From a virus (taxonomy: Duplodnaviria; Heunggongvirae; Uroviricota; Caudoviricetes): DNA of 16,119 nt. Every line of letters begins with the position of its first letter. The stretch's first letter is position 1. Position numbers and translations under genes: made by a program. A model generated the notes under the pieces. That model ran no database searches, was not told the DNA's origin, and worked only from the letters and a program-made list of their open reading frames with translations. This document shows, one piece after another, positions 7,899-8,275 of this stretch. The DNA is taken from positions 1-16,119 of the IMG/VR virus record IMGVR_UViG_2526164619_000006. The stretch is one strand, 5' to 3'.

Positions 7899-8090
7899 TT
7901 AAAGACCTGCCGGGATTTCGTTATTATCCTGGTGAATAACTTTATCGACCGGGTAACAGTTACCGGGAATTTTCTGTTCGGTTGCTGCAGTCACACACTC
8001 CTGCATTGTCCTGTGAACACTGACTGCAATATCAACTGGCTCTCCGGAAACAAGAAAAAATGTCAGAACAAGTGCAAATGCTGTATTCAT
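7899..8090 (-). CDS. Small hypothetical protein (63 aa) with hydrophobic signal-peptide-like N-terminus and two Cys
   Basis: Start taken at MNTAFALVLTFFLVSG (ATG 8088..8090) with a GGA Shine-Dalgarno ~8 nt upstream. The upstream gene's TGA stop (8087..8089) overlaps this ATG by 2 bp (translational coupling). Confidence 0.45.
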   Translation of the reverse strand: MNTAFALVLTFFLVSGEPVDIAVSVHRTMQECVTAATEQKIPGNCYPVDKVIHQDNNEIPAGL

Positions 8091-8275
8091 TGCCAGCATC
8101 CTTTTTGTATCGGACGTAAACGGGCCAGCATTGAAAGAATGCATATTTTATTTAATAACTCCCGTTCGTGTTTTCTCTTGTTAATGGCATCTTCAGTAAA
8201 TACAGGGTTACTGATAGTGACACCAATTTCAAAACAACCTTCAGACGTATTAACGTTTGGTAATAACGTTTCCAT
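8087..8275 (-). CDS. Small hypothetical protein (62 aa)
   Basis: ATG at 8273..8275 with a GAGGA Shine-Dalgarno ~8 nt upstream. Same strand and operon as the early genes. Confidence 0.45.
   Translation of the reverse strand: METLLPNVNTSEGCFEIGVTISNPVFTEDAINKRKHERELLNKICILSMLARLRPIQKGCWQ

Follow-up and report, generated by a model that had tools for sequence, protein, structure and literature searches.

The closest described counterpart of the locus reported here is the dicBF operon of the Qin prophage of Escherichia coli K-12 and of lambdoid phages. In K-12 the operon is transcribed from dicBp, which is repressed by DicA and derepressed by the antirepressor Rem; no internal promoter has been found, and a transcript of 1,608 nt spanning ydfABC-dicFB-ydfD has been inferred (PMC10448788). 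DicB of K-12 binds MinC, and the complex is recruited by ZipA to the septal ring; FtsZ is depolymerised there by MinC, and the cells become filaments (PMC6832061). The same protein makes cells approximately 100-fold more resistant to lambda and to other phages whose DNA enters via ManYZ, and it blocks the use of mannose and glucosamine, both effects requiring the contact between DicB and MinC (PMC6832061).

The product of the neighbouring gene, YdfD, lyses nearly all cells when it is induced in K-12 (PMC8835842). Co-expressed DicB or SulA prevents this lysis, which therefore depends on cell division (PMC8835842). YdfD binds IspG, a cytoplasmic isoprenoid enzyme, in vitro and in vivo, and extra ispG or HMBPP relieves lysis; the published mechanism is accordingly inhibition of IspG, as described in a single paper without enzyme kinetics (PMC8835842). 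YdfD resembles protein E of phiX174, A2 of Qbeta and LysM of phage M in being small and in being reported to block the supply of cell-wall precursors rather than to degrade the wall, but it bears no sequence relationship to them, and its gene belongs to the early-left region in temperate lambdoid phages. Because these phages also carry a holin/endolysin cassette, YdfD is unlikely to be their main lysis device.

Here we describe a dicB-ydfD pair in a stretch of viral DNA of 16,119 nucleotides (IMG/VR record IMGVR_UViG_2526164619_000006), which is referred to as the window throughout. We are highly confident that the pair belongs to a Qin/PPompW-type lambdoid prophage remnant of Shigella flexneri K-315, that it has lost its promoter and that it is probably silent. 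Both genes are already known, named and experimentally studied in K-12. The first-pass annotation recognised neither sequence; matches to Pfam, NCBIfam and K-12 proteins identify them as the well-known DicB and YdfD. The pair is thus not a discovery, and the only particularity of this copy is its separation from the promoter by a copy of IS1.

Organization of the gene pair

Both genes are located on the minus strand and are intact. The upstream gene, dicB (8087..8275), encodes a protein of 62 aa (METLLPNVNTSEGCF...KGCWQ; sequence: METLLPNVNTSEGCFEIGVTISNPVFTEDAINKRKHERELLNKICILSMLARLRPIQKGCWQ), and the downstream gene, ydfD (7899..8090), encodes a protein of 63 aa (MNTAFALVLTFFLVSGEPVD...IPAGL; sequence: MNTAFALVLTFFLVSGEPVDIAVSVHRTMQECVTAATEQKIPGNCYPVDKVIHQDNNEIPAGL). 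The ATG of ydfD (8090-8088) lies over the TGA of dicB (8089-8087), which yields an ATGA overlap at positions 8087..8090 of the minus strand. A Shine-Dalgarno sequence, GAGGA, is found 7 nt 5' of the dicB ATG (8283..8287), and another, AAGGA, 8 nt 5' of the ydfD ATG (8099..8103), within the 3' end of dicB; an equivalent AAAGGA precedes the start of ydfD in K-12 and in the Klebsiella phage homologue. Direct reading of the minus strand therefore confirms the earlier description of two small, translationally coupled genes with good Shine-Dalgarno sequences and an ATGA overlap. The overlap, together with the ribosome-binding sequence inside dicB, would couple the translation of ydfD to that of dicB, and because of this coupling the lysis protein YdfD would be made together with its restrainer.

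The 5' leader of dicB (8276..8447, minus strand) is a remnant of the spacer between dicF and dicB, and homology to intact prophages ends at position 8447. On the other side of the pair, 38 nt past the ydfD stop codon, a consensus scan revealed a weak terminator-like hairpin (7848..7861, minus strand), the position of which fits the end of the 1,608-nt transcript inferred in K-12 (PMC10448788), a fit that is suggestive only.

Many automatic gene calls use an 81-aa version of ydfD that begins at the ATG at 8144. This start was rejected: the extension contains stops in the PPompW homologue. The 81-aa version matches Pfam only from residue 22 onward, and a Shine-Dalgarno sequence precedes the ATG at 8090 in the window, and the corresponding ATG in K-12 and in the Klebsiella phage.

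Classification and features of DicB and YdfD

All residues (1-62 of 62) of the window DicB match Pfam family PF05358 (E=1.7e-37, 127.4 bits against a cutoff of 27), and the protein also matches the NCBIfam model NF049927, 'cell division inhibition protein DicB', with 132.7 bits against a cutoff of 100. Regarding YdfD, residues 4-61 match positions 1-57 of the 57 positions of the Pfam profile DUF1482 (PF07358; E=7.7e-24, 83.8 bits against a cutoff of 25); the protein further matches phrog_1092 (E=3.2e-36), and a search of NCBIfam with YdfD matched no model. Judged by these two full-length Pfam E-values, the signal lies far beyond chance. Sequence searches of the PDB with DicB and with YdfD gave no meaningful match for either protein, and no evidence contradicting the identification was found in this analysis. 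The exact DicB protein occurs on at least 1000 public contigs, where it is named DicB; the exact YdfD protein likewise occurs on at least 1000 public contigs, as well as in 1938 indexed blocks of the assembly collection. The names given to the matching genes in RefSeq are dicB and ydfD/DUF1482.

The window DicB is 89% identical to DicB of K-12 (b1575, NP_416092.1) and 100% identical to DicB of an intact prophage in E. coli M15. It shares with the K-12 Qin protein the length of 62 aa, the 4-nt overlap and the place directly upstream of ydfD, and differs from it by seven of 62 residues, mostly C-terminal: E2K, H36Q, L47V, P55L, I56M, Q57P and W61A (window residue first, K-12 residue second). The window allele is of the common PPompW/mEp460 type, whereas K-12 carries the Qin type. 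As expected for DicB, the protein has about 62 aa, and its gene immediately precedes ydfD in the early-left operon of a lambdoid prophage.

The window YdfD is 92% identical to YdfD of K-12 (b1576, NP_416093.1, 'lysis protein' in RefSeq) and 98% identical to the M15 copy. Both the window and the K-12 Qin proteins measure 63 aa, have a hydrophobic N-terminus, Cys32 and Cys45 and a C-terminal EIPAGL, and are coupled to dicB; five of the 63 residues are substituted (T3S, A6V, F11V, V33M and N57I). The hallmarks of DUF1482, namely an N-terminal apolar segment, two Cys residues and a C-terminal PAG motif, are all present in the window protein. Pairwise dN/dS values against K-12 are 0.49 for dicB and 1.47 for ydfD, both from too few substitutions to be informative.

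By analogy with K-12, the window DicB would be expected to cause MinC/ZipA-dependent disassembly of the FtsZ ring and a MinC-dependent block of the ManYZ inner-membrane channel. YdfD, when made, would lyse dividing cells via inhibition of IspG, with DicB suppressing the lysis. The first-pass annotation had guessed at superinfection exclusion or host takeover and had attached this role to the protein with the hydrophobic N-terminus; the guess holds for DicB (PMC6832061), not for that protein.

Conservation and operon order in related prophages

A megablast search with an 801-bp query detected matching DNA, over at least 80% of the query, in 3946 of 5426 complete E. coli genomes, where it is annotated as dicB and ydfD/DUF1482; the pair also occurs in the sequenced phages mEp460, Tritos and HannyBb and in the PPompW phages. 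The 4-nt overlap of dicB and ydfD is found in K-12 Qin (4110-4298 and 4295-4486 in L001), M15, mEp460, PPompW_EH2246 and six further genomes, and both ORFs are conserved in all of these related prophages, the point on which the earlier annotation had staked its proposal. In comparison with the window, YdfD of PPompW_EH2246 is about 47-48% identical and DicB 70%, and both frames are open. Homologues of DUF1482 with 34-45% identity are found in phages of Klebsiella, Citrobacter and Salmonella (42% in the case of the Klebsiella phage homologue), whereas tblastn with DicB detected no homologue of that protein in any phage of these three genera.

The order of genes was compared in K-12 Qin, M15, mEp460, PPompW_EH2246 and six other genomes and reads repressor (dicA-like)-dicBp-(ydfA-ydfB)-ydfC-DicF-dicB-ydfD-exonuclease (ydfE, 823 aa)-xis-int, ydfA-ydfB being an optional part. 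Rfam finds DicF in M15 (6760-6811 of L002), mEp460 and PPompW. The exonuclease gene is full-length in all compared genomes except K-12 Qin, where it is truncated, and it is frameshifted in PPompW. In the dicBF operon of intact relatives dicB and ydfD thus come fifth and sixth, following ydfA, ydfB, ydfC and DicF. The pair had earlier been placed at the head of the early operon; its position in intact relatives is mid-operon, and it seems to stand at the head in the window only through an IS1-associated deletion upstream.

In the Klebsiella phage ST16-OXA48phi5.1 (2891-3192 of L005) the DUF1482 homologue is in a 4-nt overlap with a small upstream ORF of 37 aa (MNDFARKPARQQAV...), in which no resemblance to DicB is apparent by eye. 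It may be that every YdfD-type protein is coupled to a partner encoded upstream. Independent insertions of IS1 into the same module were observed in E. coli 94EC (4303-5168 of L006) and E. coli 300033 (4056-4990 of L007), one in the 3' end of ydfD and the other in the exonuclease gene; disruption of this toxic region by insertion sequences appears to recur.

Loss of the upstream operon

Relative to the dicBF operon of Qin and lambdoid phages, the window retains the distal part, dicB-ydfD-ydfE', with order and orientation unchanged and with integrase-side remnants after it; the promoter, ydfABC, DicF and the dicA/dicC immunity genes are deleted, with IS1 in their place, and ydfE is split. The copy of IS1 occupies positions 8448..9215 on the plus strand, with terminal inverted repeats that were read directly and with insA/insB on the plus strand, pointing away from dicB. 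Positions 7449-8447 of the window align (blastn) to positions 5750-6748 of the M15 record (L002) at 98.7% identity and to K-12 at 92.3%. The homology breakpoint at 8447 is 11 nt 3' of the DicF position, and IS1 starts at the next base, 8448. Past IS1 the window resumes at position 10973 of L002, inside a DUF1627 gene, and positions 6749-10972 of L002 (approximately 4.2 kb) are missing. In M15 these 4.2 kb comprise DicF, two hypothetical genes, ydfC, ydfB, ydfA, the repressor, a cro-like gene and an M15-specific copy of an IS3-family element.

The absence of DicF was also seen in direct searches: Rfam found no DicF in the whole window, and K-12 dicF, aligned without gaps to positions 7701-8520 (minus strand), agrees at no more than 22 of 53 bases. 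Unlike dicB of K-12 Qin and of a complete dicBF operon, dicB of the window accordingly has neither the DicF sRNA upstream nor dicBp, ydfABC and the adjacent dicA/dicC.

The sequences flanking IS1 differ (ACAAAATT on one side, ATCAGAACG on the other), and there is no 9-bp target duplication. As the flanks are not a direct repeat, the structure is the product of an IS1-associated deletion or of IS1-IS1 recombination and not of a simple insertion. One IS1-linked event joins the dicB leader to the middle of the DUF1627 gene and removes DicF, ydfABC, the promoter and the immunity region. A Shigella genome has in this manner disarmed toxic prophage genes, losing promoter, sRNA and repressor in one step and leaving the toxic ORFs intact.

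A 5726-bp part of the window, both IS junctions included, shares 100% identity with contig AKMY01000016.1 (GCA_000268165.1, S. flexneri K-315). A search for the exact IS1/dicB junction showed it to be absent from the GTDB species-representative genomes and from the complete E. coli genomes.

Reading frame, expression and export

Three readings of the locus compete with that of an intact and probably silent dicB-ydfD pair. On the plus strand, antisense to both genes, an ORF of 184 aa (7869..8423) is the longest across the region and is also open in M15 and mEp460, as it would be if it were the real gene and the two small ORFs its shadows. However, this frame is interrupted by a single internal stop in K-12 and by four stops in PPompW_EH2246, two genomes in which dicB and ydfD are both open; it has no Pfam match, whereas the ORFs opposing it have strong family matches; and its upstream part falls in a spacer that diverges between relatives. 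The ORF was rejected on account of the stops in the K-12 and PPompW_EH2246 homologues and the missing Pfam match, and the probability that it is the real gene is negligible. It had been named in the first-pass annotation as the competitor of the pair, and the stops in homologues decide in favour of the two genes. For these, the question is whether they are still expressed. A consensus scan of the minus strand between IS1 and dicB (8276-8447) revealed no promoter-like site, and because the only known promoter is lost, IS1 points away from dicB and the interval from IS1 to dicB is free of such sites, the genes are probably silent; given the missing promoter and this crude scan, we regard them as probably intact but silent passengers in a decaying prophage. 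Alternatively, the pair could still be expressed from a cryptic promoter or from one directed outward from IS1, and be kept since a low level of DicB guards the host from ManYZ-dependent phages. Insertion sequences have indeed broken three genes or regions nearby but have left both ORFs intact, K-12 DicB gives approximately 100-fold resistance to lambda (PMC6832061), and one weak promoter-like site is present on the minus strand within IS1 (9108-9079). This site matches only nine of 12 positions and lies approximately 800 nt upstream, however, and the number of sites in the scan (n=4) is not above chance (2.3 +/- 1.5 in shuffles). The lack of a site between IS1 and dicB and the lack of any promoter besides dicBp in K-12 (PMC10448788) also speak against continued expression, and a recent deletion explains the intact ORFs, the sequences of which are identical to common alleles, equally well. 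Continued expression is therefore considered unlikely, at perhaps one chance in several, and silent genes remain the preferred reading.

Regarding the N-terminus of YdfD, the reported combination of a signal-peptide-like start and two Cys residues in the downstream product was borne out, with an apolar, uncharged run at residues 3-16 and with Cys32 and Cys45. The run is 14 residues long, the Kyte-Doolittle average for residues 4-14 is 2.83, and E17-P18 come next; read heuristically, V-S-G|E-P agrees with the -3/-1 rule of signal peptidase I. By the same heuristic, YdfD has a hydrophobic core in the range of about 7-15 residues and small residues at -3/-1, and in sequence its N-terminus looks more like the core of a signal peptide than like a full membrane-spanning helix. 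A positively charged n-region is lacking: neither K nor R occurs among the first 26 residues of YdfD, and homologues lack such a region as well. None of G16, C32, C45, P60, A61 and G62 varies in an alignment of 19 DUF1482 sequences; the homologues from PPompW and the Klebsiella phage keep the N-terminal apolar segment, G16, the Cys pair and A61-G62, with variation at P60. An AlphaFold2 model of YdfD from the 19-sequence alignment was of low confidence (mean pLDDT 59, pTM 0.30).

These features would suit a mini-protein that is exported by Sec or anchored N-terminally in the periplasm, with a disulfide between Cys32 and Cys45, and whose true target in lysis is in the envelope and is not IspG. 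A core of 14 residues is what a signal peptide typically has and is short for a helix that crosses the membrane, V-S-G|E conforms to the -3/-1 rule, and G16, C32 and C45 do not vary among the 19 sequences; phage homologues of 42-48% identity still have the two Cys residues and the hydrophobic N-terminus, and Cys mutants still bind IspG (PMC8835842), so that the IspG model leaves the conservation of the Cys residues unexplained. Set against this are the absence of a basic residue in the N-terminal region, the binding of IspG in vitro and in vivo together with the rescue by ispG overexpression or HMBPP (PMC8835842), and the killing activity that is retained in some measure by the C-terminal domain alone (Masuda 2016, as reported in PMC8835842). 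Export of YdfD is on balance improbable, more so than continued expression of the pair. Slightly less probable still is the general form of the idea, in which DUF1482 would comprise exported or anchored mini-proteins with a periplasmic disulfide that lyse through an envelope target, IspG being secondary, and in which dicB-ydfD would be a restrainer-plus-killer module of lambdoid phages. With the published IspG mechanism as the preferred reading, it is a loose end that a cytoplasmic target is difficult to reconcile with the signal-like N-terminus and the invariant Cys residues.

Other features of the window

Downstream of the pair, the ydfE-type exonuclease gene (2848-7806, minus strand) is present in three pieces, 2848-3511, 4760-5820 and 7084-7806; the two interruptions are IS3-family insertions (3512-4759 and 5821-7083), and a short target repeat accompanies each of them. 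The piece next to ydfD forms a truncated ORF (7081..7806, minus strand) in which the N-terminal 241 codons run into the IS3 insertion, the intact homologue having 823 aa. The window matches M15 up to 7084, where the IS3-type element 5821-7083, flanked by a short direct repeat, adjoins; the resulting chimeric fragment of 241 aa is exactly EIQ24487.1 of Shigella flexneri K-315. A deletion of approximately 39 bp near 7449-7462 was observed relative to both K-12 and M15.

At the left end, a phage integrase gene (1-918, minus strand) runs off the edge of the window. It is adjoined by an IS4-family transposase gene (952-2298, minus strand), another insertion sequence in the prophage, at the place where relatives have xis.

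Beyond IS1, a gene for QueH (epoxyqueuosine reductase, PF02677, E=1.1e-65) is located at 10193-10879 (plus strand), between a DUF977 gene and an IS3-family element; the M15 prophage has the same gene. This IS3-family element (10948-12253, minus strand) contains an ALIL frameshifting pseudoknot (11802-11918; Rfam, 120 bits), and the same type of element is found elsewhere in the M15 prophage. It is directly abutted by a sok locus in the right arm of the prophage, a would-be type I toxin-antitoxin system with a sok antitoxin RNA at 12256-12431 (plus strand; Rfam, 121.6 bits) and an overlapping ORF at 12369-12581 that is presumably the hok/mok toxin. The late-regulation genes of the right arm (13029-15136, plus strand) seem intact and comprise a gene for a DUF968/HNH protein (13029-14084), an ORF of 121 aa (14085-14450) and the gene for antiterminator Q (14447-15136, plus strand; PF06323, E=4.9e-84).
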